From NCBI GenBank assembly GCA_905235765.1, contig CAJOMM010000003.1:1-36562 (forward strand): 36,562 nucleotides of DNA, read 5' to 3'. Under the pieces are notes generated by a model that searched no databases, was not told the origin of the DNA, and saw nothing but the letters and a program-made list of their open reading frames with translations. Shown here piece after piece: positions 625-19,256 of this stretch (positions are counted from its first letter, which is position 1; each line of letters starts with the position of its first letter). This stretch comes from an uncultured Clostridia bacterium (GTDB lineage Bacteria; Bacillota; Clostridia; Christensenellales; Borkfalkiaceae). The position numbers were made by a program, and so were the translations under genes.

Positions 625-749
625 AATTCTCCCTCGGAATAAATTATGAAAAAGAAGATTAAATTATGCCGGTTATTAAATTTAATAAAACCGTTGATTT
701 TTTATTCGCCGTTTGGTACAATAAAAATATAAAGTTTTGGAGTAATGTT

Positions 750-1343: not shown

Positions 1344-1378
1344 ATAATTAATTTTAAGTTAATTTAAAACATCGGAAC

Positions 1379-1418
1379 AAGCCCCGAAGCGAAAAATTCG
1401 CTTCGGGGCTTGTATTTT
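1379..1418 (+). terminator. intrinsic terminator downstream of the membrane protein gene
   Basis: 13-bp perfect stem aagccccgaagcg (1379-1391) / cgcttcggggctt (1399-1411) with a 7-nt loop, followed by gtatttt. Confidence 0.75.
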
Positions 1419-1461
1419 AAAATTTTTTAAAAATATTTTCATTTTTGACGTCATAAGCCTA

Positions 1462-1489
1462 TTGTCAAAAATTTTCGTCGGGGTATAAT
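1462..1489 (+). promoter_or_regulatory. sigma-A/sigma-70-type promoter of the phage-like cassette
   Basis: TTGTCA (1462-1467), 16-nt spacer, TATAAT (1484-1489). The track ATG at 1488 lies inside the -10 box, so the real TerL start must be downstream. Confidence 0.55.
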
Positions 1490-1514
1490 GACGGCGAATT
1501 GCAAGGGGAAATAT

Positions 1515-2948
1515 ATGTTAAACACCGTGTCAAAAATACTTCGCATCGAAAAAGAAATTTCTTTAAGAGCGCCCGTGGATAAACTTAAAAATTATAATTC
1601 CGGAGAGGTAAAACACCTCAAACAACTGGCGTTCCACAAGTGCCAAAAGAAAAATCGCTGGGTGTTCGGCGGAAACCGTAGCGGCAAAACGGAGTGCGGT
1701 GCGGTGGAAACCGTATATATGGCAAGAGGTATTCACCCTTACAGGGAAAACCGCAGAGACGTTTTCGGTTGGGTCGTTTCACTTTCTTCGCAAGTTCAAA
1801 GAGACGTCGCGCAGGCGAAAATACTTTCTTACCTTAATCCGCGTTGGATAGACGATATAATTATGAGTTCAGGCAAAAAGGACAGTCCGTCGAGCGGCAT
1901 TATAGATCAGATAAAGATTAAAAACGTCTTCGGCGGCGTTTCCACCGTGGGGTTTAAATCGTGCGATCAGGGAAGAGAAAAATTTCAGGGCAGTTCTTTG
2001 GATTTCGTATGGTTCGACGAAGAACCTCCGAAAGATATATACGACGAGTGCCGTATGAGAGTCCTCGATAAAAACGGCGACATTTTCGGCACTATGACGC
2101 CCCTTAAAGGTCTTACTTTCGTTTACGACGATATCTATCTGAAAAGCGGCGGCGAATCGGATATTTGGTGCGAATTTATGGAGTGGGACGACAATCCCTT
2201 TCTCCCTAAGTCGGAGACGCAATCGCTTTCCGAAACGCTTCCGAAAGACGAGTTGGAATCTCGTAAATACGGCAGGTTTAAGTGCAAAGAAGGGTTTGTG
2301 TATACCGAATTCGACGAAAATATCCACGTCATAGATCCCTTTCGCGTTCCCAAGGAGTGGTACGATAAAATCTCCATCGACCCGGGGCTTAAAAATCCGC
2401 TTTCCGCACATTGGTACGCCGTGGATTACGACGGGACGGTTTACGTTATAGCGGAACATTTCGAGGCGGGGAAAACCGTAGATTATCACGCCGGAAAAAT
2501 AAAGGAAATATCCGAAAAATTAGGTTGGCAAAAAGACGCTGACGGAAGGTACAGGGCTTTGATAGATTCCGCCGCGAACCAAAAAACGCTGGCGGCGGTA
2601 AAAAGCGTTACGGAACTTTTTTACGAACAGGGTATTCTTGCCGATCCTAACGTTAATAAAGAGTTGTTTTCGGGAATTTCTACGGTCAAAAAATATCTTA
2701 AGCTCGTAAACGGAAAACCCGGACTATTCATATTCAGAAATTGCGTAAACCTTATAAGAGAACTCAAAAATTACAGGTGGGGAAAGGAAGATTCGCCCGT
2801 TAAATACGACGATCACGCTTTGGACGAACTCAGATACTACCTTATGACTAAACCGTTAAACTCTCCGCCCAAACCTCAGAAAACTCCCGTGCAATTGGAC
2901 AAAGAAAGGCTTTACAGGAAGATTCTAAATGAAAGGAGAAGATATTAA
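1515..2948 (+). CDS. terL: phage terminase large subunit (TerL)
   Basis: Walker A FGGNRSGKTECG, Walker B LDFVWFDEEPP, and a C-terminal nuclease-type motif YDDHALDELRYY. Start chosen at ATG 1515, 5 nt after AAGGGGA, because 1488 lies within the -10 box. Sits at the head of the morphogenesis operon. Confidence 0.9.
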   Translation: MLNTVSKILRIEKEISLRAPVDKLKNYNSGEVKHLKQLAFHKCQKKNRWVFGGNRSGKTECGAVETVYMARGIHPYRENRRDVFGWVVSLSSQVQRDVAQAKILSYLNPRWIDDIIMSSGKKDSPSSGIIDQIKIKNVFGGVSTVGFKSCDQGREKFQGSSLDFVWFDEEPPKDIYDECRMRVLDKNGDIFGTMTPLKGLTFVYDDIYLKSGGESDIWCEFMEWDDNPFLPKSETQSLSETLPKDELESRKYGRFKCKEGFVYTEFDENIHVIDPFRVPKEWYDKISIDPGLKNPLSAHWYAVDYDGTVYVIAEHFEAGKTVDYHAGKIKEISEKLGWQKDADGRYRALIDSAANQKTLAAVKSVTELFYEQGILADPNVNKELFSGISTVKKYLKLVNGKPGLFIFRNCVNLIRELKNYRWGKEDSPVKYDDHALDELRYYLMTKPLNSPPKPQKTPVQLDKERLYRKILNERRRY

Positions 2949-3297
2949 AGATTTATCGTTTTCGGAAAAACTCAGAGAAACGCTCGTTAAAAAGGCTTTG
3001 GGCTACGACGTTACGGAAGTGGTGGAAGAATATTCGGAAGAGGACGGAGAAATTAAACTCGTCAAAAAGAAAGTAACCGTAAAAAACGTTCCGCCCGACG
3101 TTACGGCGTTAAAAATACTTTTAGACGGCGGAAACGATGACGTTTCAGAGTATTCCGACGAGCGGCTGGAGTCGGAAAAAAACAGACTTTTAGCCGAGCT
3201 TTTAGTAGAAGAAAAAATAAATAAGGAGAAGAAAAATTGCAATCGAAAAAACAACGTAAAAAATTCACCGACGAACTCAAAGACAAAAAATTCATAG
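2929..3297 (+). CDS. small terminase-related protein lacking the N-terminal HTH
   Basis: The only coding frame filling the TerL-portal gap. The segment KKALGYDVTEVVEEYSEEDGEIKLVKKKVTVKNVPPDVTALKILLDG matches, from memory, the central and C-terminal signature of a Firmicute phage TerS family (..RALGYEYEE..K..K.VPPDTTAQIFWLKNR). The HTH that normally precedes it is absent. Overlaps the TerL stop by 20 nt and the portal start by 61 nt. Confidence 0.5.
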   Translation: MKGEDIKDLSFSEKLRETLVKKALGYDVTEVVEEYSEEDGEIKLVKKKVTVKNVPPDVTALKILLDGGNDDVSEYSDERLESEKNRLLAELLVEEKINKEKKNCNRKNNVKNSPTNSKTKNS

Positions 3298-5108
3298 AAG
3301 AGATAGTCGGCGAAGTGCAAGACGATTTTGAAAATCGCCGTAAAAACCGGCTCGCCTTAGAACGGCAATGGGAACTCAATATGAATTTTCTTGTGGGAAA
3401 ACAGTATTGCGACATAAATCGCCGTGGCGAGATAGTGAAAGTTGACGACGGGTATTTCTGGCAGAAACGCGACGTGTTCAACCACATCGCTCCGATAATA
3501 GAATCCAGGCTTGCCAAACTTTCAAAAATTTCGCCCGTATTAAACGTAAGGCCGAAAACGGACGACGACTCGGACGCGCGGGCGGCTACGCTTTCGCAAA
3601 AGCTTTTGTCAGCGGCGTTTGAAGACGAAAACGTTATGTCCGTAGTCAAAAAAACGACGGTTTGGTCGGAAACCTGCGGCACGGGCTTTTATAAAATCGT
3701 GTGGAACGAAAGGAGTGGCGCAATCATTGGGAATTTAGGTAAAGAACCTGTTTTCGAAGGGGACGTAAACGTTATTTCCGTTTCGCCGTTCGAAATATTC
3801 CCGGACAATTTGTTTACCGAAAATTTAGAGGACTGCGACAGCATTATTCACGCAAGAGCGGTAACCGCTTCTAAAGTCAGAGAAAAATACGGAGTTATCG
3901 TGGAAGGCGGAGAAGTGAGCGTTTTCGGGCTTAACGGAGACGGCGAAGACGTTTACGAAGGCGTAAAAGGAACTTTGGATAACGCAGTCGTCGTTATAGA
4001 AAAGTACGAACGCCCGACTCCGGAATTTCCGAACGGCAGACTTATCACCGTCGCGGACGGAAAACTTCTTTATTACGGGGAATTGCCGTATAATAACGCG
4101 CAATACGGAGAAAGAACTTACCCCTTCGTAAAACAGGAAGGTATTAAAGTTGCCGGCAATTTTTTCGGACTTTCGGTTATAGAAAGACTGATACCGGTAC
4201 AGAGGGCGTTCAACGCCGTCAAAAACCGTAAACAAGAATTTCTGAATAGGTTATGCGCCGGCGTTATGACTGTGGAAGACGGTTCGGTAGACGTAGATCA
4301 ACTTGCGGAAGAAGGGTTGTCCCCCGGGAAAATCCTCGTTTACAGGCAAGGGGCAAAAGCGCCGGAACTTATGTCCGGATTTTCCATGCCGGGCGAATTT
4401 TCCGGCGAAGAAGAAAGGCTTATAAACGAATTCGTAAGAATAAGCGGCGTGGCGGACGTTTCGTCCAGCGCGACGAACGCTAACCTTGCGAGCGGTTCCG
4501 CGCTCCAGATACTTATCGAACAGGACAACGAAAGACTTGTGGTGAACGCGGAAATCATCAGAAATTGTATTCTTAAAATTTCCAAGCAAATAATTCGCCT
4601 TTACGGACAGTTCACGGTCAACCTCCGCGCCGTTAAACTTGCGGATAAGGAGGGGAAAATCAGAACTTATTACATCGATAAAGCGGCGATGAATTCCGAC
4701 GACGTGTATATAGAGAACGAAAACGAATTGCTGTTTACCAACAGGCAAAAAAAAGATACGATTTTCGATCTTTATAAAAGCGGACTTTTAACCGACGAAG
4801 ACGGCAATATCCATCCGGCGGTCAAAGAACGCGTGCTTGCGCTTCTCGGTTATAAGGACCTTGACTATAAAAAGGGTATTTCCAGACTTCAGGAACAAAA
4901 GGCGCAAAGCGAAAACGAAGTCATAAGAAAACGCGGACTTAACGTCGAAGATATAGACGACGACAAGATTCATATAGACGAACACACGAGATATATTCTC
5001 GCCGAATACGACGAACTTAGTGAAGACGAAAAAGAACGGCTTTTCGGACACTTAAAAAGTCATAAAGAAAGGGCGGAATCTAAATTAAAGGAGAAAGAAA
5101 ATGAGTGA
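3237..5108 (+). CDS. phage portal protein
   Basis: 623 aa with a TTG start 8 nt after AAGGAG (3223-3228). Lies between terminase and scaffold/capsid genes, has portal-typical size, and ends in an acidic/basic helical C-terminus. Confidence 0.75.
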   Translation: MQSKKQRKKFTDELKDKKFIEEIVGEVQDDFENRRKNRLALERQWELNMNFLVGKQYCDINRRGEIVKVDDGYFWQKRDVFNHIAPIIESRLAKLSKISPVLNVRPKTDDDSDARAATLSQKLLSAAFEDENVMSVVKKTTVWSETCGTGFYKIVWNERSGAIIGNLGKEPVFEGDVNVISVSPFEIFPDNLFTENLEDCDSIIHARAVTASKVREKYGVIVEGGEVSVFGLNGDGEDVYEGVKGTLDNAVVVIEKYERPTPEFPNGRLITVADGKLLYYGELPYNNAQYGERTYPFVKQEGIKVAGNFFGLSVIERLIPVQRAFNAVKNRKQEFLNRLCAGVMTVEDGSVDVDQLAEEGLSPGKILVYRQGAKAPELMSGFSMPGEFSGEEERLINEFVRISGVADVSSSATNANLASGSALQILIEQDNERLVVNAEIIRNCILKISKQIIRLYGQFTVNLRAVKLADKEGKIRTYYIDKAAMNSDDVYIENENELLFTNRQKKDTIFDLYKSGLLTDEDGNIHPAVKERVLALLGYKDLDYKKGISRLQEQKAQSENEVIRKRGLNVEDIDDDKIHIDEHTRYILAEYDELSEDEKERLFGHLKSHKERAESKLKEKENE

Positions 5109-5527
5109 AAAAGAGATTAAACAAGAAAATAGCGGAAAGGAATTGCCGCAGGTCGAGGAGACTTTACCTGTTACGGAGGAAAAAGTCGAACTCGGAAAAT
5201 TCAAAGACGTAAACGCGCTCGCGAAAGCTTACGAATCTTTACAATCTGAATTTACCAAACGCTGTCAGAGAAGAATTGGAGCAACGCGTTTCGGAATTCG
5301 ACAAGACGAATATCCCGAACGACGTAAACGCGGAAGCGTCGGCAAATGCAGGTATATCCGAAGAGGAAAAAGAAGAAATCTTAAAAGGGTACCTAAAACA
5401 GGTGGTCGGCGCGAGATCGAGAGCGATTTTATTAGACGGCGAGGGGACGGGGCTTAAAACTCCGTCAAAAAAACCCAAAACCGTCGCAGAGGCAGGGATT
5501 CTTGCCAAAGAAATTTTATCTAAATAA
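5101..5527 (+). CDS. phage capsid scaffolding protein, interrupted by a +1 frame break near 5266-5278
   Basis: ORF 5101..5457 encodes ..KFKDVNALAKAYESLQSEFTKRCQR, then turns into Arg-rich nonsense. ORF 5276..5527 in the +1 frame continues ELEQRVSEFDK..EEKEEILKGYLKQV... The joined sequence EFTKRCQR/ELEQR matches a scaffold motif recalled from Firmicute phages. Lies between the portal and capsid genes. Confidence 0.6.
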
Positions 5528-5544
5528 TAAATAAAGGAGAAAAA

Positions 5545-6723
5545 ATGGCAGTAAATTTAACTAATGCGGATAACGCGCTCAAGACTTATTATCTCGACGC
5601 GGTTTCCGAACAACTCAACAATAACGCTAATCCGCTTTTGGCGCAGATTAAAAAGACGACCGACGACGTTTGGGGAAAAGAGGTGAAGAAGCTCGCAATA
5701 CACGGCATAAACGGAGGAATCGGCGCCGGAACCGAAGAAGGCGATCTTCCTCCGGCTACCGGCAATAACTATTCGCTTTTTTCGGCAACTCTCAAAAACC
5801 TTTACGGAACGATTGAGATATCCGACAAGGCGGTAAGAGCGTCGGAAAACAATTCGGGAGCGTTCGTCAGTCTTTTGAACGCCGAAATGGACGGGCTTAT
5901 AAAGGCTTCTTCGTTCAACCTTGGAAGGATGCTTTACGGCAACGGTCAGGGCGTTTTGGGAAAAGTAACGAATATTTCTAACGGAATAGTTGTGCTTACC
6001 ACCGTACAGAACGTTATGGAAGGCATGGTCGTCGATTTCAGGACTTCGGCAGGCGCGCTCATCGAAGGCGCTTCGGGTAGAAGGATTTTGGTAGTCGACA
6101 GAATAAGTAAGGCGATAAAGATCGACGGAACTTCGCTTGCGCTTGAAAGCGTGCCGATAAACAGCATAATGACCGTTCAAGGTTCCTACAACAACGAGAT
6201 CACCGGTTTAAGCGCGTTGTTCGACTCAACCACTCCTACTCTTTACGGACTTCAGAAGATAGATAACGCTTGGCTCGTTCCTTATAGCAAGTCGAACGTC
6301 GGGAGCATTTCCGAAGCGGCTATCCAGAAAGCGCTCGACAATATAGAAGAAGCAGGCGGCGCTCCGGCGAACTTCATAGTGTGTTCGTTCGGCGTACGCC
6401 GTGCGCTTATAAATCTTTTGTCGGCGAATAAGAGAAACGTGGACACTTTGGATCTTGCGGGAGGTTTCAAAGCGTTAAGCTACAACGGTATACCGGTAGT
6501 TGCAGACAGATTCTGTCCTTCGGGAACGATGTATATCTTGAATACCGAAGACTTTACGTTACATCAACTCTGCGATTGGCAATGGCTTACCGGCGACGAC
6601 GGAAAAGTGCTTAAACAGATACCCGGGAAACCCGTATATACCGCGACTTTGGTAAAATACGCCGAACTTTTGTGCGCGCGTCCTTACGGTCAAGGTATGC
6701 TTTCCGGTATAAGCGAAGCGTAG
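5545..6723 (+). CDS. phage major capsid protein (presumed HK97 fold; family not assignable by eye)
   Basis: 392 aa with a strong SD AAAGGAGA 7 nt upstream. Follows the scaffold gene directly. Gly/Asn/Thr-rich with no TM segment. A stem-loop follows the gene, as often seen after highly expressed capsid genes. Confidence 0.75.
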   Translation: MAVNLTNADNALKTYYLDAVSEQLNNNANPLLAQIKKTTDDVWGKEVKKLAIHGINGGIGAGTEEGDLPPATGNNYSLFSATLKNLYGTIEISDKAVRASENNSGAFVSLLNAEMDGLIKASSFNLGRMLYGNGQGVLGKVTNISNGIVVLTTVQNVMEGMVVDFRTSAGALIEGASGRRILVVDRISKAIKIDGTSLALESVPINSIMTVQGSYNNEITGLSALFDSTTPTLYGLQKIDNAWLVPYSKSNVGSISEAAIQKALDNIEEAGGAPANFIVCSFGVRRALINLLSANKRNVDTLDLAGGFKALSYNGIPVVADRFCPSGTMYILNTEDFTLHQLCDWQWLTGDDGKVLKQIPGKPVYTATLVKYAELLCARPYGQGMLSGISEA

Positions 6724-6730
6724 TATTTTT

Positions 6731-6758
6731 ATTCTCCGAGGGGAAACCCTCGGAGAAT
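6731..6758 (+). other. perfect stem-loop downstream of the capsid gene (no U-tract)
   Basis: attctccgaggg (6731-6742) pairs with ccctcggagaat (6747-6758) around a 4-nt loop (gaaa, 6743-6746). It is followed by aacattaaaagggg rather than a T-run. Confidence 0.6.
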
Positions 6759-6778
6759 AACATTAAAAGGGGAATAAA

Positions 6779-7336
6779 ATGAAAATAAAAGAAATAATAA
6801 ATAATTCCGCGCTGTATTTGGGGCTCGGCGACGTGCGTGAATATCTTGTCGCCCAAACCGATGCAAGCGAAGAAACGCTGAAAACCGTAGGCGTTTTGAC
6901 AGGGCTTTGCAATCTGGTGATAAGCGAACTCGCTTCCACTTATATTCCTATGACGGCGACCGAAGAGGTCAGCGCCGTAGCCGGCAAAATCTTTTTTGAA
7001 AATTTAAATCACGCGGCGATAAAAGTCGTTTCCGTCAAAGACAGGTCGGGAAACGAAATAAACTTCGAGGTGTTTCCTGAATATATAAAGTTAAAAGACG
7101 GTAGATTTACCGTGGAATACGAATATATTCCGCAAAATTACGGGCTGACGGACGATATAGGCTACGACGAAAAAGACGTGCCGCAGGCGGCTTTATCCTA
7201 CGGGCTTTGCGCCGAATATTGTATTACACAATGCCGTTTCGAGGAAGCCGTTTCGTGGAGAAAACGCTATATTTTTTCGCTGGAAAAATTTTTAGTCCCC
7301 AAAGCGCGTACGATGAAAGCGAGGATGTTCGTATGA
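6779..7336 (+). CDS. hypothetical virion protein; head-completion/adaptor candidate by position
   Basis: 185 aa with SD AAAAGGGGA before ATG 6779. Its stop overlaps the next start (ATGA at 7333-7336). No recognisable motif; assignment rests on position only. Confidence 0.4.
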   Translation: MKIKEIINNSALYLGLGDVREYLVAQTDASEETLKTVGVLTGLCNLVISELASTYIPMTATEEVSAVAGKIFFENLNHAAIKVVSVKDRSGNEINFEVFPEYIKLKDGRFTVEYEYIPQNYGLTDDIGYDEKDVPQAALSYGLCAEYCITQCRFEEAVSWRKRYIFSLEKFLVPKARTMKARMFV

Positions 7337-8541
7337 AATTAGCGGAGTTTGACTTAAAAAGCGCGAAAACTTACGAGTTCGAACCCGACCTTTCAGACGT
7401 AAAACAAAAAAGAAGATTTTATTACGAGCCCTCCGAATCGTTCAGTTTTCCGTCCGCCGCAAAATGCCTTTTCGAGAGAGACGGAGAGGTTTACCTTCTT
7501 GATACGGACGGGTTTTTGTATAAGCGGAGACCGGACGGAACCGGATTTAGAATGGTTTCTATGACGCAGTTCGGACTGACAATCAAATTTTTACCCATAG
7601 TCAAAGACGGAGAAAAAGCGGTTATAGTAGTTACACCTGATACCGCGGAAGTCGCGAGAAACGCTTCCGGAACGGAAATTTCCGTTCCGTACGGCATTTT
7701 GAGGTTTTACGCCGGACGGATTTTTTCCGCAAGCGGAAAAACGGTGTTTTACAGCGGTTTATACGATTTTACTTCCTTCGACCCGAATATCGGCGGCGGC
7801 GGATTTATCGAACTTGAAGAGGACGACGGCGACATAGTCGGCATAGAAGAGTTAAGCGGAAAACTTTATATTTTTTGTAAAAATTCGCTGTTTTCATTGA
7901 CGGCGTTCGGAGAGCCTACCGATTTTAAGTTGGAAAAATTGTCTTTTCCGAGGTTGACGCCCGACGAAAACAGCGTTTTGAAAGTAGATTCAAACGTCTA
8001 TTTTTTAAGCGGCAATATACTAAAAAAATTCGACGGCAAAACGGTTAAGACAGCGTCCTTATCGCTAGTTGGCAAAACCCTTACGGGAGAAGCGGAAAGT
8101 TTTTCCGGTATGTACGTAAGGACTATAACGGGGGAAGACGGAAATTATTCTTTCGTATACGAGGACGCTACCGGTGAAGAAGCGTTCGTAAAAATACCGA
8201 CAAACGCAGAGTGTAACGGCGCTATCACGCCTCAGAGAGCTTCGGGAAAAATTCTAAGATTGACGGGCGAGACGGTCGGGGTAGACCTGTATTCTGTAGA
8301 GGGAGCGGATTTCGGAACTTCGGCAATAAAAACCGTGCTCGCCGCCGACGTCGGCGCAACCGGAACCGCTACGCTTTTAATAAAAGGCGAGAGCGGAACG
8401 GTAAAAAGAAAGATAAAAAACGGCGGAAGTTACGTTAAATTCTGCGCGTCGGGAAGGTTTTTCGACCTATCGTTTACCGACTGTTCGGAAGATTTTTCAA
8501 TAAACAGACTCAAATTGATTTATTCAAAATGCGGAGGATAA
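7333..8541 (+). CDS. hypothetical virion protein with beta-propeller-like repeats (tail-hub candidate by position)
   Basis: Track ORF 7207..8541 overlaps the preceding gene. ATG 7333 is translationally coupled (ATGA) and gives 402 aa. Recurrent blade-like motifs: GEVYLLDTDGFLYKR, GRIFSASGKTVFYSG, GKLYIFCKNSLFSLT, SNVYFLSGNILKKFDG. Confidence 0.4.
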   Translation: MKLAEFDLKSAKTYEFEPDLSDVKQKRRFYYEPSESFSFPSAAKCLFERDGEVYLLDTDGFLYKRRPDGTGFRMVSMTQFGLTIKFLPIVKDGEKAVIVVTPDTAEVARNASGTEISVPYGILRFYAGRIFSASGKTVFYSGLYDFTSFDPNIGGGGFIELEEDDGDIVGIEELSGKLYIFCKNSLFSLTAFGEPTDFKLEKLSFPRLTPDENSVLKVDSNVYFLSGNILKKFDGKTVKTASLSLVGKTLTGEAESFSGMYVRTITGEDGNYSFVYEDATGEEAFVKIPTNAECNGAITPQRASGKILRLTGETVGVDLYSVEGADFGTSAIKTVLAADVGATGTATLLIKGESGTVKRKIKNGGSYVKFCASGRFFDLSFTDCSEDFSINRLKLIYSKCGG

Positions 8542-8542
8542 T

Positions 8543-9439
8543 ATGAATTTTACAACCCCAACGACTAAAGCGGAAATGCTTGAAACGCTTAAAGATATTT
8601 TTTATTATTACAGAATAAAAAGAGAAAGTTTCGAACAACTCGAGTTGAGCGAACTGTCTCTTAGCGACCTGAGTTACGTTTCGCCTACGGCTTTGCAGAC
8701 GAGAAATAAGGCTGTAACTTTGCTCGCTCCGGCGCAAAAGACGAGAGTTCTGAAATACAAGGAAGGTTTAACGACGGAAAAATCCGAACTTACGGAGAAA
8801 CTGTCGTCCGTTTCCGCGGAAACGCAGGTGCTTTTGGAAAAGATACGCGTAAGTTACGAAGAGAGCCTTAATACGGTTCAACAGGAAGCGGTTAAAAAAG
8901 GAGTGGCGCATAGCAGTATAGTTCTCGATAAAATAGCCGCGATTACGGGAGAAAAGAACCAAAAGATACTTGACGTAAACACGGAAAGTCAGCAAAAAAT
9001 TTCCGATATAAATGCGAAGATAGCGGCGATAGACGATCTTTTAGATGACGCAGACACCTATTATAGCGAGATAGAAGAGGCTGAGATACAGGCTAAAATC
9101 GTCGAGCTCAACGAAAAGGAAGAAGAAAAAAGAATAGAGGTATTCAAATACAACAACGGGCTTCACGAAAAGGAAGTAAAATATCTTAACAGTATAACAG
9201 TGAAAACGGCAAGTTTGCAACTGCAATATATGGATATAGTTTCCGATTTTTATACCAAAGACGAATTGGTGGAAATGGGTTATTACACGGACGCTATTAG
9301 CTGCGTAGTCTCTTACTACAACACGTTATCGGCGTATGCGGCTTACACGGATATAGTTGCGGACAGAACATTACCTATCTATCTCGACGATTATTATTCC
9401 AACGTAGTATATATGTACAGAACGAAAGCCGGACAATAA
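8543..9439 (+). CDS. hypothetical coiled-coil protein with a Tyr-rich C-terminal domain (needle/plug or decoration candidate)
   Basis: 298 aa, starting 1 nt after the previous stop. The central ~140 aa are E/K/Q/L/I-rich and heptad-like (..LTEKLSSVSAETQVLLEKIRVSYEESLNTVQQEAVKK..ISDINAKIAAIDDLLDD..). The C-terminus is YYTDAISCVVSYYNTLSAYAAYTD..YLDDYYSNVVYMYR. Confidence 0.4.
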   Translation: MNFTTPTTKAEMLETLKDIFYYYRIKRESFEQLELSELSLSDLSYVSPTALQTRNKAVTLLAPAQKTRVLKYKEGLTTEKSELTEKLSSVSAETQVLLEKIRVSYEESLNTVQQEAVKKGVAHSSIVLDKIAAITGEKNQKILDVNTESQQKISDINAKIAAIDDLLDDADTYYSEIEEAEIQAKIVELNEKEEEKRIEVFKYNNGLHEKEVKYLNSITVKTASLQLQYMDIVSDFYTKDELVEMGYYTDAISCVVSYYNTLSAYAAYTDIVADRTLPIYLDDYYSNVVYMYRTKAGQ

Positions 9440-9535: not shown

Positions 9536-10573
9536 ATGAGTAAAAAAGTTAAGATAGGAAATTTGATTATAGGCGGAGGAGAACCGATAGCCGTACAAAG
9601 TATGGCGACTTTTAAGACGGAGTCTCCGGAAGCCGTAAAACAGGCGATAGCGCTTAAAAACGCAGGCTGCGATATTCTTAGGTTTTCGGTATTGGACGAA
9701 AACGACGCGGCGGCTTTTAAGAATATAAAAAAAGCCGTGGATATTCCGATCTGCGCGGATATTCATTTCGATTACAGGCTTGCGCTTCTGTCGATAAAGG
9801 CCGGCGCGGACAAAATTCGCATAAACCCCGGAAACGTCGGTCAGGAAGCGAACGTTCGGGCGATAGCGGATGCGGTAAAGTCCGCGGCAATTCCCGTAAG
9901 GGTCGGCTCCAACACCGGAAGTATAGATAAACAATTTCTCGAAAAATACGGTAAAAACGAAGTCTCCCTTGCGGAAAGCGCCTTAAAACAGGTGGCGCTT
10001 TTTGAAAAATTCGGCGTAAACGATATAGTTATATCGGTTAAAGCGTCGTCTCCGTCTCTCACGGTAAAAGCTTACGAATATATAGCGGCAAAAACCGATT
10101 ATCCGTTGCATATCGGGGTAACGGAAGCCGGTACCGAATATAACGGAATTATTAAAAACGCCGTGGCGATGGGCGCGCTTTTATTCAAGGGGATAGGCGA
10201 CACGTTAAGGGTAAGCCTTTCCGCCGATCCGCTTAAAGAGATAAAGGCGGCAAAATCCATATTATCCGCGACCGGGCTGAGAAACTACGGCGCGGAAGTC
10301 GTAGCTTGCCCGACGTGTGGGCGTTGCGAGTGGGATTGTATGAGCTTTGCCGAGAAAACGGAAAAATTCTTAGAGGGAGTAAATAAACCGTTAAAGGTGG
10401 CGGTTATGGGATGCGTGGTCAACGGGCCCGGAGAAGCCAAAGACGCAGATATAGGCATTGCCGGCGGAAGGGATGGATGCGTGATATTCTTAAAAGGGAA
10501 ATTACTCAAAAAAATAGATAAAAAGGACGCGGAAAAGGAGTTTTTTGCGGAATTACGAAAATGTATAAATTAA
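9536..10573 (+). CDS. ispG: 4-hydroxy-3-methylbut-2-en-1-yl diphosphate synthase (IspG/GcpE)
   Basis: 345 aa. IGNLIIGGGEPIAVQSM at the N-terminus, RINPGN, and the Fe-S cysteine cluster VACPTCGRC ... GCVVNGPGEA. Confidence 0.95.
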   Translation: MSKKVKIGNLIIGGGEPIAVQSMATFKTESPEAVKQAIALKNAGCDILRFSVLDENDAAAFKNIKKAVDIPICADIHFDYRLALLSIKAGADKIRINPGNVGQEANVRAIADAVKSAAIPVRVGSNTGSIDKQFLEKYGKNEVSLAESALKQVALFEKFGVNDIVISVKASSPSLTVKAYEYIAAKTDYPLHIGVTEAGTEYNGIIKNAVAMGALLFKGIGDTLRVSLSADPLKEIKAAKSILSATGLRNYGAEVVACPTCGRCEWDCMSFAEKTEKFLEGVNKPLKVAVMGCVVNGPGEAKDADIGIAGGRDGCVIFLKGKLLKKIDKKDAEKEFFAELRKCIN

Positions 10574-12093
10574 AGAGCAGCGCGGAGTTTCTTTCGGAAA
10601 TTAAAAATCTCTCGGAAACGCTTAAAGATATTAAAATCAGTTCTATAGAGGTCGACAGGGAAAAAAATTCCGTAGTATATAATTTTATTTGCGAAAAATA
10701 CGTTCCGGAGGATCTCCGCCAAAAGATAGCGGAGGTGGTTTCGGAAAATACGGCGCCGATTTTTTCCGAGGTTTCGGTCAACGTAAAAAAGATAGTTGCG
10801 GACGAGAAACTTATCGACGTGGAAATTTACAAATTCTTAAAGGAAAATTATCCGTCGATCGCCATTTTTTTGACCGAAAAAGACGTGTCGTGCGAATCCA
10901 AAGACGGGTTGGTAAAATATACGCTCAGATTATCTTCCGACGGAGCGGAATACGTCCGCAAAAACGGCGCGATGAAAAACCTGAACGAATATCTTTCCAA
11001 AAAATTCTGCGCGGAATTCGTCGGGGCGACCGACTTGAAGCCGGAAATTCTGTCGGTTAACCTTCTTTCGGACGACGTTTATCAAAGCCAGCTTAGGCGG
11101 ATAGAATACCGTACCATAAAAGTTTCGGGCGTGATGCCGATAGACGATGAGAATATGGGCGACGTCGCTATTTATATAGAGGATATAGAGGACGGAGAAA
11201 TAACCGTTTCGGGCACCATAACCGATATAGAAGAGCGCGAGACGAAGAACGGCAAACCTTTCTTTATCATAAGGATAGACGATACGACCGGCAGAACGGG
11301 CGGCGTGTATTTTTCCAAGAAGGCGACCTATCCTAAAATAAAAGAATTAAAGGTCGGGGACGATATTATAGCGCGTGGAAATTACGGAGATTATAACGGT
11401 AGAAAATCTCTTACGATAGATAAGATAAACCGCTGTGTTTTTCCTAAAGATTTCGTCAAAAAAACAAAGTATAAAAATCCCGTTCCCGCGGAATACCGTA
11501 TGGTATTTCCCGAAAAAGCGGAAAATATAAGCGTTAAAAGCGTGTTCGACGTCGAGGAAAAACTGCCGGAAGAATTAGTGAGTAAGGTTTACGTCGTTTT
11601 CGACCTTGAAACCACCGGAATAGAGCGCTCCGAAAACGGAATAACGGAAATAGGCGCGGTAAAGATCGTAAACGGAGAAATTGCCGAACAGTTTAACGTT
11701 CTCGTTAAACCCGAATATCCTATTTCCGAAGAGAACGCAAATCTTACCGGAATTACTCCCGAAATGGTTGCCGACTGTCCCAAGATAGAAGACGTTTTAC
11801 CGGATTTTATCAAGTTTACGGACGGCGCTATTCTCGTAGCGCACAACGCTTCTTTCGATATGGGGTACATAAAGAAATATGCGGCTGAGTCCGATTACGA
11901 GATAAAAAACGCCGTTATAGACACCTTGGACCTTTCGAGAAGGTATCTTCCGGAACTCAACAAACACGATCTCGGCACGGTTGCGGAAAGATTTAAAATA
12001 GTATTCCGTCACCACAGGGCGCTGTCCGACGCGTACGCTACGGCGGAAGCGTTTATAGAACTTATGAAAATAAAGTGGAAAAACGGCGAGTAG
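10561..12093 (+). CDS. PolC-related protein with N-terminal domain, OB fold and DnaQ-type 3'-5' exonuclease only (no PHP or polymerase domains)
   Basis: Exo I VVFDLETTGI, Exo II ILVAHNASFDMGYI, Exo III HHRALSDAYATAEAF. The OB segment EITVSGTITDIEERETKNGKPFFIIRIDDTTGRTGGVYFSKK..VGDDIIARGNYG resembles the PolC OB domain. 510 aa. Sits in the syntenic polC slot between ispG and rimP. Confidence 0.8.
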   Translation: MYKLKSSAEFLSEIKNLSETLKDIKISSIEVDREKNSVVYNFICEKYVPEDLRQKIAEVVSENTAPIFSEVSVNVKKIVADEKLIDVEIYKFLKENYPSIAIFLTEKDVSCESKDGLVKYTLRLSSDGAEYVRKNGAMKNLNEYLSKKFCAEFVGATDLKPEILSVNLLSDDVYQSQLRRIEYRTIKVSGVMPIDDENMGDVAIYIEDIEDGEITVSGTITDIEERETKNGKPFFIIRIDDTTGRTGGVYFSKKATYPKIKELKVGDDIIARGNYGDYNGRKSLTIDKINRCVFPKDFVKKTKYKNPVPAEYRMVFPEKAENISVKSVFDVEEKLPEELVSKVYVVFDLETTGIERSENGITEIGAVKIVNGEIAEQFNVLVKPEYPISEENANLTGITPEMVADCPKIEDVLPDFIKFTDGAILVAHNASFDMGYIKKYAAESDYEIKNAVIDTLDLSRRYLPELNKHDLGTVAERFKIVFRHHRALSDAYATAEAFIELMKIKWKNGE

Positions 12094-12113
12094 GAAATAA
12101 AAATCACTTAGAT

Positions 12114-12146
12114 GGGCGGGAAAAGTCCTGCCCGACGGTTTTTTTG
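12114..12146 (+). terminator. intrinsic terminator after the PolC-related gene
   Basis: gggcggg (12114-12120) pairs with cctgccc (12127-12133) with one G-U pair, followed by gacggttttttt. Confidence 0.6.
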
Positions 12147-12176: not shown

Positions 12177-12205
12177 TTGCAAAAAAGCGGCAAATATGTT
12201 ATATT
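12177..12205 (+). promoter_or_regulatory. putative promoter of the rimP-nusA-infB operon
   Basis: TTGCAA (12177-12182), 17-nt spacer, extended -10 TGtTATATT (12197-12205). Confidence 0.5.
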
Positions 12206-12232
12206 TATTTAGGCTTAAGTACTTTTACTTGT

Positions 12233-12264
12233 ATGAGAACGGTTTTCCGTTCTCATATCTTTTT
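12233..12264 (+). promoter_or_regulatory. leader terminator/attenuator hairpin upstream of rimP
   Basis: atgagaacgg (12233-12242), loop tttt, ccgttctcat (12247-12256), followed by atcttttt. Lies between the promoter and the rimP SD GAGGGGG (12267-12273). Confidence 0.6.
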
Positions 12265-12277
12265 GTGAGGGGGAATC

Positions 12278-12742
12278 ATGAAGGTTTTATCCAACGAAGA
12301 AATAAGGGCTTTTTGCGAAAAATACGCGGCGCCGCTCGGTATTGCGGTTAAAGAAGTGGAATTCAAAAAAGGCAAAAATCCTTCGCTTACCGTTTTCATC
12401 GACAAAGAAGGCGGCGTAAGCCTGGACGATTGCGAGGCGCTGCACAACGCAATTTACGACCCGATAGACGAACTCGACCCCACTTTCGGAGAACCGTATA
12501 CGCTTAACGTATCCAGTCTCGGTGCGGACAGACCGTTCAAGACGGAAAACGATTTTCTTTCGCATATAGATAAAATGGTGGAAGTCAGATTGAAAAACGC
12601 CGTCAAGGGCAAAAAATATCTGGAAGGGGTGCTTATAAAATACGACGGAAAGGAGATCGTCGTTAAAACGGATGAGAAAACCACTCTTTCCCTTGACCTT
12701 AAAACCGTTCAGAAAGTGAGCGAGTATATAGATTTTAATTGA
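12278..12742 (+). CDS. rimP: ribosome maturation factor RimP
   Basis: 154 aa, directly upstream of nusA. Typical RimP features: ..LGIAVKEVEFKK..LTVFIDKEGGVSLDDCEALHNAI..LDP and LNVSSLGADRP. Confidence 0.9.
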   Translation: MKVLSNEEIRAFCEKYAAPLGIAVKEVEFKKGKNPSLTVFIDKEGGVSLDDCEALHNAIYDPIDELDPTFGEPYTLNVSSLGADRPFKTENDFLSHIDKMVEVRLKNAVKGKKYLEGVLIKYDGKEIVVKTDEKTTLSLDLKTVQKVSEYIDFN

Positions 12743-12779: not shown

Positions 12780-13880
12780 ATGACAAATCAGGATTTTTTT
12801 GCAGCGCTTGAAGATTTAGAGCGCGAACGCGGTATCTCGCAGGAAGAATTTATCAGCGCGCTTGAAAACGCAATGAGTATCGCCTATAAAAAGGCGTCCG
12901 ACACCCCGGGAGAAGTTGTTATTAAACTCAATCCGGAAAAGAAAAGTATTACCATAACTTCCGTGCGGCGTGTGGTCGACGAGGTGGAGGATCCCGAAAA
13001 GGAAATTTCCGTGGAAGAAGCCAAGGAAATCAAAAAATCCGTAAAATCAGGCGACGTTATTACCGAAGAGATAAAGTCCAAGGACTTCGGAAGGATTGCC
13101 GCGCAGACTGTGAAGCAGGTAATAACTCAAAAGCTTCGCGAGATAGAGCGCAACAATACCGTAAACGAATTCGAGGATAAAGAGGGCGAACTTATGGCGG
13201 CGACTATCCGTCGAATAGAGAACGGCACCGTGTACGTTGAAATAGGCGGCAGTCAGATAGAAGGCGTGCTGCTTCCGAAAGATCAGGTTATCGGCGAAAA
13301 ATACGAGTTAAATCAGACTCTTAACGTTTACGTGAAAAAAGTAAAGAATACCGGTAAAGCCGCGCAAATTATGGTTTCGCGCACGTCTACGGGGTTGGTA
13401 AGGCGTCTTTTTGAAAACGAAGTGCCTGAAATCAAACAGGGCGTCGTAGTGATTAAAAACATCGCGAGAGATCCCGGTCAGCGCACGAAAATCGCTATTT
13501 ACAGCGAAGATCCGGCTGTAGACGCGGTCGGCGCGTGCGTCGGAAATAAAGGCGCAAGGGTAAACGCTATCGTCGCGCAACTCGGCGGTGAAAAAATAGA
13601 TATTATTCCTTGGAGCGAGAATCCGCTCGAATATATTTCGCAAGCGCTTTCTCCGGCGAGAGTCATTAAAGTCGTAGAGACGGGAGAAGAAAGCGCGATG
13701 GCGGTCGTTCCCGACGACAAGCTTTCGCTCGCTATAGGCAGAAAAGGACAAAACGCCAAACTCGCCGTTAAGCTTACCGGGTGGAAGATAGACGTAAAGT
13801 CCGAATCGGCGGCTTTAAGCGAATTGGGCGAAGCGGAAGTAACGGAAGAACCGCAAGAAAACTTAACGGAAGAAAACTGA
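12780..13880 (+). CDS. nusA: transcription termination/antitermination factor NusA
   Basis: 366 aa. N-terminal domain, an S1 domain (GTVYVEIGGSQIEGVLLPKDQ) and two KH domains (GACVGNKGARVNAI, AIGRKGQNAKLAVKLTGWKIDV). Confidence 0.95.
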   Translation: MTNQDFFAALEDLERERGISQEEFISALENAMSIAYKKASDTPGEVVIKLNPEKKSITITSVRRVVDEVEDPEKEISVEEAKEIKKSVKSGDVITEEIKSKDFGRIAAQTVKQVITQKLREIERNNTVNEFEDKEGELMAATIRRIENGTVYVEIGGSQIEGVLLPKDQVIGEKYELNQTLNVYVKKVKNTGKAAQIMVSRTSTGLVRRLFENEVPEIKQGVVVIKNIARDPGQRTKIAIYSEDPAVDAVGACVGNKGARVNAIVAQLGGEKIDIIPWSENPLEYISQALSPARVIKVVETGEESAMAVVPDDKLSLAIGRKGQNAKLAVKLTGWKIDVKSESAALSELGEAEVTEEPQENLTEEN

Positions 13881-14458: not shown

Positions 14459-17067
14459 ATGGCAGATATGCATATAGACAACATCAAAAAAATTAACGAA
14501 ATGTTGAAAGACGACCTTTTAAATAAACTCGTTTTGCGTTTTAACGCGTCCGAAAAAAGCGTTAAAGAGTTTAAGGGCGTTCTTACCGCAAAGTACGAAG
14601 AGCTTTCTTCTATAAAAGAGACGGAGACGTTCGCGGAAGAACCTGTCGCCGAAGTCGTGGAAGAGGAAAGAACGGAAGAGGTTTTGCGTGAAAAACCTGA
14701 GGCTCCCGAAGTAAAGGAAGAGGTCTCGGAAAACAAGGACGAACAGATAGAAGATTCGCCCGAAACGCCTTCCGTAAATCCCGAAGAAAAAGCCGAAGAA
14801 CCGGCGCCGAAGCCTGAGCAAAAATCCGAACAAAAGCCCGAAGAAACTCCTGAAGAAGAGCAGGCTAAGAAACCTGAGCCCGTTGAAAAGCCTGCGGAAA
14901 CGATTAAAAACGATAAAAAGAGCGATACGGCAAAACCGATGCCGTCCTTTATCGTGCGCAGGGAATTCGTACCGAAAAACAACACGGATACAAGGGCGCA
15001 AAATTTCAAAACTTCGCAGTCGAAGCCGTATGTAAAAGGGGAAAAACCTGCGTTTACGCCCCGTCCGTCTGCAAAAAAACCGCAGAATACTTACGTTGCG
15101 CCGCCCATAGTTCCGACTTCCTCGGATAAGCGTTCTTTCGGCAAGAAGAACAAAGGCGTAGAAAAGAATTTTGAAGAAAAGCACGTTATAAATAAGCGCG
15201 CGCTTATAAAGAACAACGTCGATATAGACGATTTCGATGAAAATAAGACGGGTTACAGAAAGTTCCGTCCGGTCAAAAAGGCGAAGGAAGAACAGCCCGT
15301 AAACACGATGATCACGCAGTGGTTAATACCGAGATAATACCGCTTAAAGTGTTGAGCGAAAAAATCGGAATTACGACGGTAGAGATTACCAAACGCCTTT
15401 TTAAGGAAGGCATTATGAAAACGATAAACGATTCCGTGGACTTCGATACGGCGGCTTTTATAGCCGACGATTTAGGGGTAGAACTGGAATTGAAACTCGA
15501 TAAGACCGCGGAAGACGTTTTGTCAGCCGGATTCGAGGATGTTCTTGACGAAGAAAAAGATCTTGTGCGTCGTCCGCCGGTGGTTACCGTTATGGGACAC
15601 GTAGATCACGGAAAGACTTCTATACTCGACAAGATTCGTAAAACGAACGTTACCGCCGGTGAAGCCGGAGGAATAACTCAACATATCGGCGCGTATACCG
15701 TTACGGTAAACGGCAGCCCCATAACGTTTTTGGACACTCCGGGACACGCCGCATTTACGGCGATGAGGGCGAGAGGCGCGCAGGCTACCGATATAGCCGT
15801 TCTCGTCGTCGCTGCCGACGACGGAATAATGCCGCAGACGATAGAGGCGATAAGCCACGCCAAAGCGGCGGACGTTCCGATAATAGTCGCGGTAAACAAA
15901 ATCGATAAGCCGGAAGCCAATATCGAGAGGATCAAACAGCAATTGACCGACCACGGACTTCTTCCCGAAGAGTGGGGCGGAGACGTTATCGTTTGTCCAG
16001 TTTCCGCAAAGACGGGAGAAGGCATCAACGGACTTTTGGAGAGCATCAATCTTTTAGCCGAAATAAAGGACCTCAAAGCCAACCCCGACAGAAAAGCGAA
16101 AGGCGTCGTTATAGAGGCGAAACTCGACAACAGCAAAGGTCCTATCGCCACCGTGCTTATTCAGAACGGCACGTTGAAAGTGTCCGACAACGTTATCGTC
16201 GGAACGGTTACGGGTAAAATCCGCGCGATGACCGACGACAAAGGCAGAAGAGTCAATTCGGCAGGTCCGTCCGTCCCCGTTTCGATAATGGGATTGGACG
16301 AAGTTCCGAACGCAGGCGATATTCTTTACGCGGTAGAGCAGGATAAACTTATGAAACTCGTAGCCGAAGAGAGAAAGAATAAAGAGCGCGAAAACATGAT
16401 AAAATCCGCCTCGAAAGTTACGCTTGACGACGTATTCGACAGAATAGCCGAAGGCGAGATAAAAGGTCTTAACATTATAGTAAAAGCGGACGTGCAAGGT
16501 TCTGTCGAAGCGGTCAAACAATCGCTTGAAAAACTTTCCAACGACGAAGTACGCATAAACGTCATACATGCGCAGGCAGGCGCAATAAAAGAGTCGGATA
16601 TTATGCTTGCGGAATCTTCTAACGCAATAATAATAGGCTTTAACGTCCGTCCCGACAGCAACGCCAAGCAGATTGCCGAAAAGAGCAAGGTCGACATCAA
16701 ACTTTACAGGGTTATTTACGAAGCGATAGAGGACGTAGAGAAGGCGCTTAAAGGTATGCTTAAACCTAAATTCAGCGAAGTATATCTCGGAAAAGCCGAA
16801 GTCCGTGAAGTGTTTAAGATTTCCGGCGTAGGACAGGTCGCCGGCTCGTACGTTACCGACGGAAAGATTTTGCGCAGCGGAAAACTCCGTATTTACCGCG
16901 ACGACGTTATGATTTGCGAAGGCAACGTTTTGCAGTTAAAACGCTTTAAGGACGACGTAAAGGAAGTCGCGCAGGGGTATGAGTGCGGTATTTCCATCGA
17001 AAAATTCAACGATATAAAAATCGGCGATTATATAGAATGTTATCAAGTGGAAGAAGAGAAAAACTGA
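14459..17067 (+). CDS. infB: translation initiation factor IF-2, split into two ORFs by a -1 frame break within 15247-15337
   Basis: ORF 14459..15337 (292 aa) is an acidic, Pro/Lys-rich N-terminal region. ORF 15319..17067 (582 aa) holds the IF2_N-like segment ([27 protein letters not shown]), the G domain ([18 protein letters not shown]) and the C-terminal domains. There is no SD before GTG 15319. The frames overlap by 19 nt. Confidence 0.9.
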
Positions 17068-18416: not shown

Positions 18417-19256
18417 TGACGGGATTTATAAATATAGATAAACCGACGGGCGTTTCGTCGGCGCGCGCCGTTGCCGCCGTAAGACGTAAATTTTCCACAC
18501 CTTGCGGTCATATGGGCACTTTAGACCCGATGGCGACGGGGGTATTGCCCGTAGGAATAGGTAAAACTTCTCGGCTTTTCCCATACCTTTTAGACAAAAA
18601 AAAGGTTTACAAAGCCGTTTTTACTTTCGGGTATTCGACCGATACTTTAGACGCTACGGGAAAGACCGAAAGCGTTACTTCATATATTCCTACAGAAAAC
18701 GATATAAAATCCGTTCTCTCGGCAATTTCGTGGGAGAAATAGATCAGGTTCCCCCGAATTATTCTTCTAAATGCGTTGACGGGAAAAGAGGGTATCAACT
18801 CGCAAGACGAGGCGTTTTTTTTGAACTTCCGCCGAAAAAAGTGGTTATTGAAAGTATTTCTCTTAACGAAAGGCTTTCCCTTAACGAGTTTGCTTTTGAA
18901 ATTTCCTGTAAAGGCGGAACGTATATCCGTTCCCTTGCCAGGGATATAGCTAAAAGCGTCGGCAGCCTTGTATGTCTAAGTTGACGAGAGCGGAAAGCGG
19001 AAGGTTCAATTTGGGAAATTCGGTAGGGTTAGAAGAGTTCGAGGACTGTTCGGATCCCGAAAAATACGTTATTCCGGCGGACTTCGCGCTCGACTTTGAA
19101 AAGTTATTTCTCGAAGAAAAAGACGCGAAAAAAATTCTCGACGGTGTCTACGAAGACCTCGGGTTTAAGGACGGGACGTACAGGGTGTATAACGGAGATA
19201 AATTTTGGGGTGTTGGCGAATCTTCGGGCGGAAAACTCCGCATATACGTCAGATGA
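18416..19256 (+). CDS. truB: tRNA pseudouridine(55) synthase TruB, broken into three ORFs by two -1 frame breaks
   Basis: 18416..18742 encodes GFINIDKPTGVSS..CGHMGTLDPMATGVLPVGIGK..KVYKAVFTFGYSTDTLDATG. 18730..18984 encodes (F)VGEIDQVPPNYSSK..CKGGTYIRSLARDI. 18972..19256 encodes MSKLTRAESGRFNL plus a PUA-like C-terminus. Together they form a full-length TruB. Confidence 0.85.

Follow-up and report, generated by a model that had tools for sequence, protein, structure and literature searches.

Contig CAJOMM010000003.1 from an uncultured Clostridia bacterium of the Borkfalkiaceae (assembly GCA_905235765.1), which we analysed over positions 1 to 36,562 (hereafter the window), carries a short gene in the slot before rimP-nusA-ylxR-ylxQ-infB that related genomes fill with polC, the gene of a replicative DNA polymerase. 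This open reading frame (ORF), at 10561-12093 on the forward strand, starts with ATG and encodes a protein of 510 amino acids (aa), called X here. Profile alignments and gene order show that X is derived from PolC, of which it keeps the N-terminal domain, the OB fold and the DEDDh proofreading exonuclease; it stops before any polymerase core, while the palm catalytic motif PDIDLNF is present in every PolC that we examined. The first-pass annotation of this DNA had offered two explanations, a stand-alone OB/exonuclease protein of PolC descent that persists at the original polC locus, or what was left there when polC was relocated or replaced, and the former is supported by the collinear alignment together with synteny. 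Judging from sequence, we propose with moderate confidence that X acts in trans, with a DnaE-type polymerase (probably DnaE1), as a replisome-tethered proofreader and scaffold. The gene and its parts are as follows.

10561..12093, forward strand: X, PolC-derived protein, complete coding sequence including the stop codon (ORF list; identical protein on two independent ENA contigs)
10561..11160, forward strand: N-terminal domain, aa 1-200, two small alpha/beta subdomains (about 25-96 and 109-159) and then a low-confidence helix; homologous to PolC NI/NII (hhalign; AlphaFold2 (AF2) secondary structure)
11173..11439, forward strand: OB fold, aa 205-293, equivalent of the PolC OB domain (PF01336, Foldseek, hhalign)
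11440..11580, forward strand: disordered linker, aa 294-340, vestige of the C-terminal part of the N-terminal PHP half (predicted local distance difference test score (pLDDT) <50 at 297-326; hhalign)
11494..11520, forward strand: linear motif Y312-x-x-[VI]-[FK]-P317-[EKQ]-x-[YF], window copy YRMVFPEKA (family conservation; aligns with PolC PHP)
11533..11547, forward strand: second linker motif, columns Q325-x-[SDN]-[LMF]-F329, window copy VKSVF (family alignment)
11581..12090, forward strand: DEDDh exonuclease with catalytic D348, E350, D433, H485 and D490 (PF00929, TIGR00573, solved PolC exonucleases)

Relationship of X to PolC

The profile of the full-length X family aligns collinearly with PolC residues 1-601 (hhalign probability 100%, E-value 1.1e-76, 508 columns). 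The N-terminal 200 residues taken separately align with the N-terminal domain of clostridial PolCs (probability 97.5%, E-value 7.8e-12, 152 collinear columns from residue 2), for which the reversed control gave 0.3%. The top Foldseek match of the X model is the full-length PolC of E. faecium (9qpc_A, E-value 5.7e-19, 377 columns covering the OB fold and the exonuclease), and all other matches are confined to the exonuclease, whose best solved relatives are again PolC exonucleases (2p1j, E-value 1e-33; 9qpc residues 442-603). At the pairwise level BLASTP matched only the exonuclease, with 44% identity to an Anaerococcus PolC. Thus, the statement of the first-pass annotation that both the OB and the exonuclease segments closely resemble PolC holds at the pairwise level for the exonuclease, while the OB fold and the N-terminal domain are recognisable at the level of profiles and folds only; the comparison with PolC that it had suggested extends by profile over the first ~600 PolC residues. 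The best NCBIfam models for X are two PolC equivalogs, both well below their cutoffs (NF001688: 194.3 bits vs 873; TIGR01405: 170.2 bits vs 1043). The Pfam models of the NI/NII domains (PF14480 and PF11490) matched neither X nor 61 family members, which is uninformative, since the same models also miss genuine clostridial PolCs. The N-terminal domain of PolC has been described as related to domain V of tau (PMC12926913).

Pfam recognises the OB fold (PF01336, residues 214-289, E-value 6e-8) and the exonuclease (RNase_T/DEDDh family PF00929, residues 345-498, 131.5 bits vs a cutoff of 24), and TIGR00573 scores 121.1 bits against a cutoff of 71.5, as expected of a member of the DnaQ/DEDDh superfamily. 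Residues 1-210 have no Pfam match, and at E<=1 no match was found anywhere in X to PHP (PF02811), DNA_pol3_alpha (PF07733), PF17657, the finger domain or HhH. In the AF2 model (pLDDT 76.6) an OB barrel (212-293) is followed by a disordered linker (297-336) and by the exonuclease, and the chain, which ends in ...ELMKIKWKNGE, stops right after the exonuclease fold. The absence of the palm, fingers, thumb and C-terminal part, as first annotated, is therefore borne out. X also lacks the (HhH)2 domain and the C-terminal beta-clamp motif; 98 of 106 related PolCs end in Q.[SDNT][LMFI][FL]. Structure prediction thus yields the OB barrel and the two alpha/beta subdomains, the latter with the reservation about their structural matches given below.

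The first-pass annotation regarded both PHP halves as absent. This is correct for the first ~60-70 residues of the domain and for its whole second half, but not for a vestige of ~35-40 aa in the linker, which hhalign places on the PolC PHP segment '...DHGVVQAFPEAF...IPGxELY...'. The region around P317 ([FK]-P-[EKQ]-x-[YF]) aligns with 'VQAFPEAF' of this segment, and the conserved block after it aligns with 'IPGxEL[YF]', the PHP beta3 strand, at a comparable distance from Exo I. The vestige does not include the HxH and DH metal ligands. The vestige, the deleted parts of PHP and the lost polymerase together argue that X arose by reduction from PolC, and is neither an unrelated exonuclease nor an ancestral form that preceded the fusion.

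Conservation of the X family

The same protein, with the same neighbours, is encoded on two independent ENA metagenome contigs (L226 and L227, of 68 and 65 kb), with 99.7% identity to the window; inside the X gene L226 differs from the window at five nucleotides, all of them synonymous changes. A word-indexed search revealed more than 120 clusters of proteins of 505-514 aa with 58-72% identity to X. Among the best 150 matches of an exhaustive HMMER search with the family profile, we counted about 135 full-length representatives (of 50%-identity clusters; 493-545 aa, aligned end to end, E-values from 1e-231 to 1e-58) and just one canonical PolC. The members derive from uncultured Clostridia or Bacillota metagenome-assembled genomes (MAGs), in which they are named 'hypothetical', '3'-5' exonuclease', 'exonuclease domain-containing' or '3'-5' exoribonuclease'. 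Membership of a described stand-alone exonuclease family unrelated to the PolC N-terminus is ruled out, as the proteins go by these names only and no curated model attains its cutoff.

No variation in the catalytic residues D348, E350, D433, H485 and D490 was seen among 31 close and 108 diverse members. We find all domains of X to be under purifying selection; in the deep family the mean pairwise identity is 0.18 for the N-terminal domain, 0.28 for the OB fold, 0.26 for the linker and 0.46 for the exonuclease. X represents a monophyletic, vertically inherited and strongly conserved family, and its monophyly and conservation rule out a decaying remnant.

We attach a negligible probability to the view that X is an artefact or a recent pseudogene, that is, a polC truncated by misassembly, frameshift or contig join. 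It is true that the window contains indels that break infB and truB relative to the near-identical contigs. However, two independent assemblies with unbroken infB and truB contain the identical 510-aa protein and its flanks, and X aligns over its whole length with hundreds of homologues (493-545 aa) whose catalytic residues do not vary. Misassembly is ruled out by these two contigs and by more than 130 deep clusters of the same architecture. Moreover, the stop codon of X is followed by a terminator, and the 36.5-kb window contains no polymerase-like sequence (its largest ORF, of 623 aa, encodes a portal protein).

The indels themselves are five multi-nucleotide differences from L226/L227 (-7, +2, -4, -6 and -5 nt), located at positions 15310 (infB), 18715-18716 and 18971 (truB), 19245 and 5273. 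In the window they leave infB as two ORFs (14459-15337 and 15319-17067) and truB as three, while the intact products in L226 and L227 have 871 and 282 aa. They are either assembly or consensus errors or strain-specific lesions; a real lesion is unlikely, because infB is broken.

The polC slot in related genomes

A scan with the X protein identified 22 species-level MAGs with the gene order ispG-X-rimP-nusA-ylxR-ylxQ-infB-rbfA-nrnA, and a NusA-anchored scan added about 25 further X loci (492-549 aa, 22-59% identity); ispG-X-rimP-nusA is the arrangement in loci L001-L022 and L026-L050. The titles of these records refer to Christensenellaceae, Candidatus Borkfalkia, Coproplasma, Fimimonas and others. 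In more distant genomes found by the NusA scan (Eubacteriaceae, Planococcus and a Firmicute), the same slot reads ispG-polC-rimP-nusA, with PolCs of 1395-1441 aa. Among 200 PolC loci sampled by motif and similarity, most clostridial PolCs are encoded directly downstream of ispG, and the carriers of this arrangement include Christensenella hongkongensis and MAGs titled Aristaeellaceae, Congzhengia, Limiplasma and 'Christensenellales'. These comparisons agree with what had been stated at the outset: ispG does precede polC in most Clostridia sampled, and the slot is the ancestral polC locus. The same ~500-aa form exists in relatives, where it occupies the slot in about 50 MAGs, across a large clade of uncultured Clostridia from gut and rumen.

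In the distant members L312 and L313 the cluster extends further upstream (pyrH-frr-uppS-cdsA-dxr-rseP-ispG-X-rimP-nusA). In another distant X-type MAG, L314 (JAZOFN010000069.1), the order is uppS-cdsA-rseP-X, with neither dxr nor ispG in between, which suggests that the genes of the methylerythritol phosphate pathway were lost from the cluster and X was kept.

In a neighbour-joining tree of ispG the X-type and PolC-type loci are not intermixed. The exonucleases of X form one clade in the exonuclease tree, which is star-like and does not place the sister PolC. The simplest history is that polC was reduced in place once and that the product was then inherited vertically. The family appears to be confined to uncultured lineages, and hence it would have been missed by surveys of complete genomes.

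Fate of the full-length polymerase

We regard it as probable that full-length PolC was lost from the X-type genomes. None of the ORFs of at least 700 aa that flank about 47 X-type loci contains the PolC/DnaE palm motif (the large ones look like infB and, at ~1240 aa, purL, according to their position and start sequences), and tblastn with PolC on the X-type loci matched only the exonuclease of X. The PolC sample comprised 120 loci from a scan with the motif PDIDLNF.GEYQ and 80 from a genome scan with the nearest PolC core; in this sparse sampling the ~50 X-type and ~200 PolC loci have no assembly in common, and a protein search with the nearest PolC core yielded no clear candidate for a relocated PolC in X-type genomes.

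According to an alternative explanation, X is an extra, sub-functionalised paralogue that serves as an accessory exonuclease (in repair, Okazaki-fragment or 3'-end processing), and a full PolC is encoded at another locus. We give this a minor but appreciable probability. Relocated 'orphan' PolCs are indeed known from related lineages (L240, titled 'Christensenellales bacterium', and L238), but the two orphans nearest to the clade have 65% GC, vs 34-54% GC at the X-type loci. A partial PolC bears the label 'Christensenellaceae bacterium' (P0323), but in a MAG project with 20 X-type genomes of that name none of the 23 PolC loci is so labelled. The sampling is sparse, and C. minuta is not among the nine DnaE1-only Firmicutes named in the 2026 survey (PMC12926913). 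On the other hand, the ~50 X-type and ~200 PolC loci do not overlap in any assembly, the PolCs closest to the relatives are nearly all adjacent to ispG, so that their genomes are not X-type at that slot, and reduction in place is more parsimonious than duplication combined with relocation.

As to the orphans themselves, L240 (JBGVCH010000037.1) and L238 are 65%-GC MAGs with a full-length PolC away from both ispG and rimP-nusA; in L240 the gene is flanked by genes for GH130, DUF2927, a nucleotidyltransferase, a transglutaminase and uvrB. They indicate that relocation of polC does occur in the wider group.

We also considered a split PolC, in which X would have a partner consisting only of PHP and polymerase domains, but the candidates of 841-889 aa turned out to be contig-edge or frameshift fragments. 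At L228:6727-11162, two adjoining gene calls of 589 and 889 aa, with their junction inside the Exo III motif, make up the PolC behind ispG; either a frameshift or the gene caller divided it, and it does not represent a PolC naturally encoded by two genes.

Proposed function

Two in-place deletions in an ancestral polC would produce X: one of the first ~60-70 PHP residues, and one of everything past the exonuclease, which would have taken the second PHP half, the palm, thumb and fingers, the C-terminal clamp motif and HhH. The product would retain the N-terminal domain, the OB fold, a disordered PHP vestige of ~40 residues and an intact DEDDh exonuclease. At the replication fork it could act as a 3'-5' proofreader in trans for a DnaE-type polymerase, comparable to epsilon in E. 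coli Pol III: single-stranded template or a frayed 3' end might be held by the OB fold, mismatches would be removed by the exonuclease, and recruitment may proceed through the PolC-type N-terminal domain and the Q-x-[SDN]-L-F motif of the linker, a putative clamp binder. According to two surveys (PMC12926913, PMC3919608), proofreading in trans for DnaE3 by the PolC exonuclease has been reported in B. subtilis, the DnaE1 of clostridia usually contains an active PHP proofreader, and some Firmicutes are DnaE1-only.

Despite the predicted disorder of the linker, P317 is present in 108 of 108 diverse members and Y312 in 106. The columns of the second motif conform to Q..[LMFIV][FLYWM] in 94 of the 108, and 63 of the 68 occurrences of the strict motif anywhere in the proteins fall at the linker site. 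Beta-clamp-binding motifs have the form QL[SD]LF, which the linker motif Q-x-[SDN]-L-F resembles. In PolC relatives, Q.[SDNT][LMFI][FL] occurs at the extreme C-terminus (98/106) and before Exo I in 1 of 99. We infer from the alignments that the PHP beta3 remnant G-x-E-L-[FY] may have been reshaped into a putative clamp motif after the C-terminal clamp motif of PolC was lost.

In three orthologues from the same slot (L041:2964-4610, L042:7702-9336 and L045:7484-9121; 545-549 aa, one of them from Candidatus Fimimonas) the exonuclease is dead, with all five DEDDh residues replaced (NVIFK, HNIAS and YNLSN). Still present are the N-terminal domain, an OB fold with an insertion, the Y..V.P motif, a Q-[IL]-x-F motif and an exonuclease-like fold. 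Loss of catalysis with the architecture maintained points to an additional, non-catalytic role of X, presumably an architectural one.

Several points weigh against the proofreader and scaffold function. It is drawn from homology and context, and a full PolC elsewhere in the X-type genomes, if present, would weaken the notion of an 'epsilon for DnaE1'. The window copy of the second linker motif, VKSVF, lacks the canonical Q, the window's subfamily having [VIL]-[KSN]-[ST]-V-F, and the motif could be a conserved remnant of the PHP strand with another partner. The AF2 model of the N-terminal domain alone gave only weak, non-specific Foldseek matches (dual-BON, archaeal NusA KH pair; template modelling (TM) score 0.2-0.27); there is no solved structure of a PolC N-terminal domain to match, and in the electron cryo-microscopy structures of PolC this domain is flexible and unresolved, and its function is unknown (PMC12592400). 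Finally, RNA can be a substrate of DEDDh enzymes, and in some sources X goes under the name of an exoribonuclease.

The last point leads to another explanation, namely that X, as a co-opted 3'-5' exoribonuclease, serves RNA turnover or the maturation of rRNA or tRNA, which we regard as improbable. The exoribonuclease name given to several members by NCBI is an automatic label, with no curated model above its cutoff. DEDDh enzymes do include RNase T and oligoribonuclease, X has a weak Pfam match to the Rv2179c-like exoribonuclease family, and its OB fold is of the tRNA_anti-codon type, but the closest relatives of every domain of X are from PolC. The neighbours rimP, nusA, infB, rbfA, nrnA and truB are related to ribosomes and translation; X took this neighbourhood over from polC, however, genomes with PolC have the same one, and X has its own terminator and rimP its own promoter-like site.

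The proofreader and scaffold reading can be extended to a more daring one: a species-rich clade of gut and rumen Clostridia would have dismantled PolC and would now replicate with DnaE1 alone, keeping the remaining module as a clamp-tethered proofreader and scaffold, with a clamp motif re-invented from a PHP strand and, in one subclade, with a dead exonuclease and the scaffold preserved. We put this forward tentatively, with somewhat more doubt than belief.

Comparison with known systems

X has the same slot as PolC, between ispG and rimP-nusA, and the same succession of domains: N-terminal domain, OB fold and DnaQ-like DEDDh exonuclease, with the PHP vestige between the latter two. It differs in the absence of a polymerase core, a functional PHP domain, HhH and the C-terminal clamp motif; it has 510 aa vs ~1400-1470 aa and cannot synthesise DNA. 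With E. coli Pol III epsilon (DnaQ) it has in common that it is a stand-alone DEDDh proofreading exonuclease (30% identity, TM score ~0.85 on the epsilon chain). Epsilon reportedly carries a clamp-binding motif, QTSMAF, in a flexible segment beside the exonuclease, to which the putative Q-x-[SDN]-L-F motif of the X family consensus (VKSVF in the window) is comparable, but the motif lies N-terminal to the exonuclease in X and C-terminal to it in epsilon. Furthermore, X has a PolC-descended exonuclease with a PolC-type N-terminal extension of 340 residues, lacks the C-terminal alpha-binding tail of epsilon and scores 102.7 bits vs the TIGR01406 and PRK05711 cutoffs of 222.7 and 196. By the missing tail and these scores X is not an epsilon subunit in the strict sense.

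PolC variants without the exonuclease (N-terminal domain-OB-PHP-Pol3-HhH) have been described in Clostridia and Negativicutes (Timinskas 2014, PMC3919608), and we found exonuclease-less PolCs of 1232-1284 aa at several sampled loci. Like X, they indicate that the modules of PolC are separable in Clostridia; the deletion is the opposite one, however, as they lost the exonuclease, kept the polymerase, and are still polymerases in the slot. In Bacteroidetes DnaE1 has an N-terminally fused exonuclease, and mycobacteria and Treponema have non-canonical stand-alone DnaQ proteins (PMC12926913). In these systems, too, a DnaQ-type proofreader is paired with a DnaE-type polymerase, but they are of independent origin, without the PolC N-terminal domain and OB fold, and do not reside in the polC locus. 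The exonuclease domains of PRK06807, of the PRK07883 family and of DinG-exonuclease fusions are similar to that of X (158-168 bits), yet X falls below the curated cutoffs (335-508), and in these proteins the partners are GIY-YIG, BRCT or helicase domains rather than the PolC N-terminal domain and OB fold. A stand-alone protein composed of N-terminal domain, OB fold and exonuclease is described neither in the 2014 survey (PMC3919608) nor in the main text of the 2026 survey (PMC12926913), and full-text literature searches returned nothing relevant on truncated or remnant PolC or on PolC in combination with Christensenellaceae.

The current classes of replication systems (DnaE1-only, PolC+DnaE1 and PolC+DnaE3) were derived from surveys of complete genomes, mostly of cultured organisms (PMC3919608, PMC12926913). 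X is a natural 'domain dissection' of PolC, in which the N-terminal domain, the OB fold and the exonuclease persist as an independently selected unit, and it offers a direct way to test what the N-terminal domain of PolC does. Should the polymerase truly be gone, a two-polymerase system would have collapsed to a DnaE1 system with the proofreader of PolC kept in trans, and abundant commensals would be naturally insensitive to PolC inhibitors such as ibezapolstat. X will be all the more interesting if whole-genome checks confirm that the polymerase is gone. On the practical side, the family is misannotated as 'exoribonuclease' or 'hypothetical', and the lack of polC in such MAGs could be misread as incompleteness.

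Neighbouring genes and minor observations

The features that surround X in the window are the following.

9536..10573, forward strand: ispG (GcpE), the upstream gene (PF04551, E-value 1e-132; ORF coordinates)
12113..12145, forward strand: intrinsic-terminator-like hairpin with a 9-bp stem (6 GC pairs) and a T-run; the hairpin proper is 12113-12134, 20 nt past the X stop
12177..12742, forward strand: promoter-like site (12177-12205), leader hairpin (12231-12258) and rimP (12278-12742), the start of the rimP-nusA-ylxR-ylxQ-infB unit that usually follows polC
1488-2948, forward strand: large terminase (phage-head cluster)
3237-5108, forward strand: P22-like portal (phage-head cluster)
5545-6723, forward strand: major head protein (phage-head cluster)
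7333-8541, forward strand: virion structural protein (phage-head cluster)
8543-9439, forward strand: DUF7934 protein (phage-head cluster)

ispG and X overlap by 13 nt, and hence they are probably co-transcribed and translationally coupled. Downstream of X follow rimP (12278-12742), nusA (12780-13880), ylxR, ylxQ, infB, rbfA and nrnA. The terminator first placed at 12114-12146 is confirmed, with its limits refined to the hairpin at 12113-12134 and a T-run up to 12145. With this terminator behind X and the promoter-like site ahead of rimP, the ispG transcription unit ends with X. Past the promoter-like site and ahead of the start codon of rimP we observed a 12-bp hairpin with a T-rich tract (12231-12258, forward strand), possibly the leader or an attenuator of the rimP-nusA-infB operon. 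The 20 other large ORFs of the window that were scanned against Pfam are phage-head or housekeeping genes.

Among the sampled PolCs, those of L113, L114, L132, L136, L266, L272, L301, L267, L302 and L307 have ~1230-1284 aa and no exonuclease match, and several of them are in the ispG-polC slot. Other PolCs are unusually long: P0184 (1631 aa), L107 (1708 aa), L158 and L172/L239 (~1625 aa). In P0184 two tandem exonuclease domains are inserted in PHP.

The phage-head cluster (666-9439, forward strand) lies directly upstream of ispG, and we saw no tail, lysis or integrase genes in it. About 25 species of the subclade to which the window belongs (L001-L022, L026, L028 and L035) have it in synteny, with 55-72% aa identity; it is absent from the more distant X-type loci, and its divergence is about that of the housekeeping neighbours. 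It looks like a vertically inherited, domesticated element, perhaps similar to a gene transfer agent, rather than a recent prophage.

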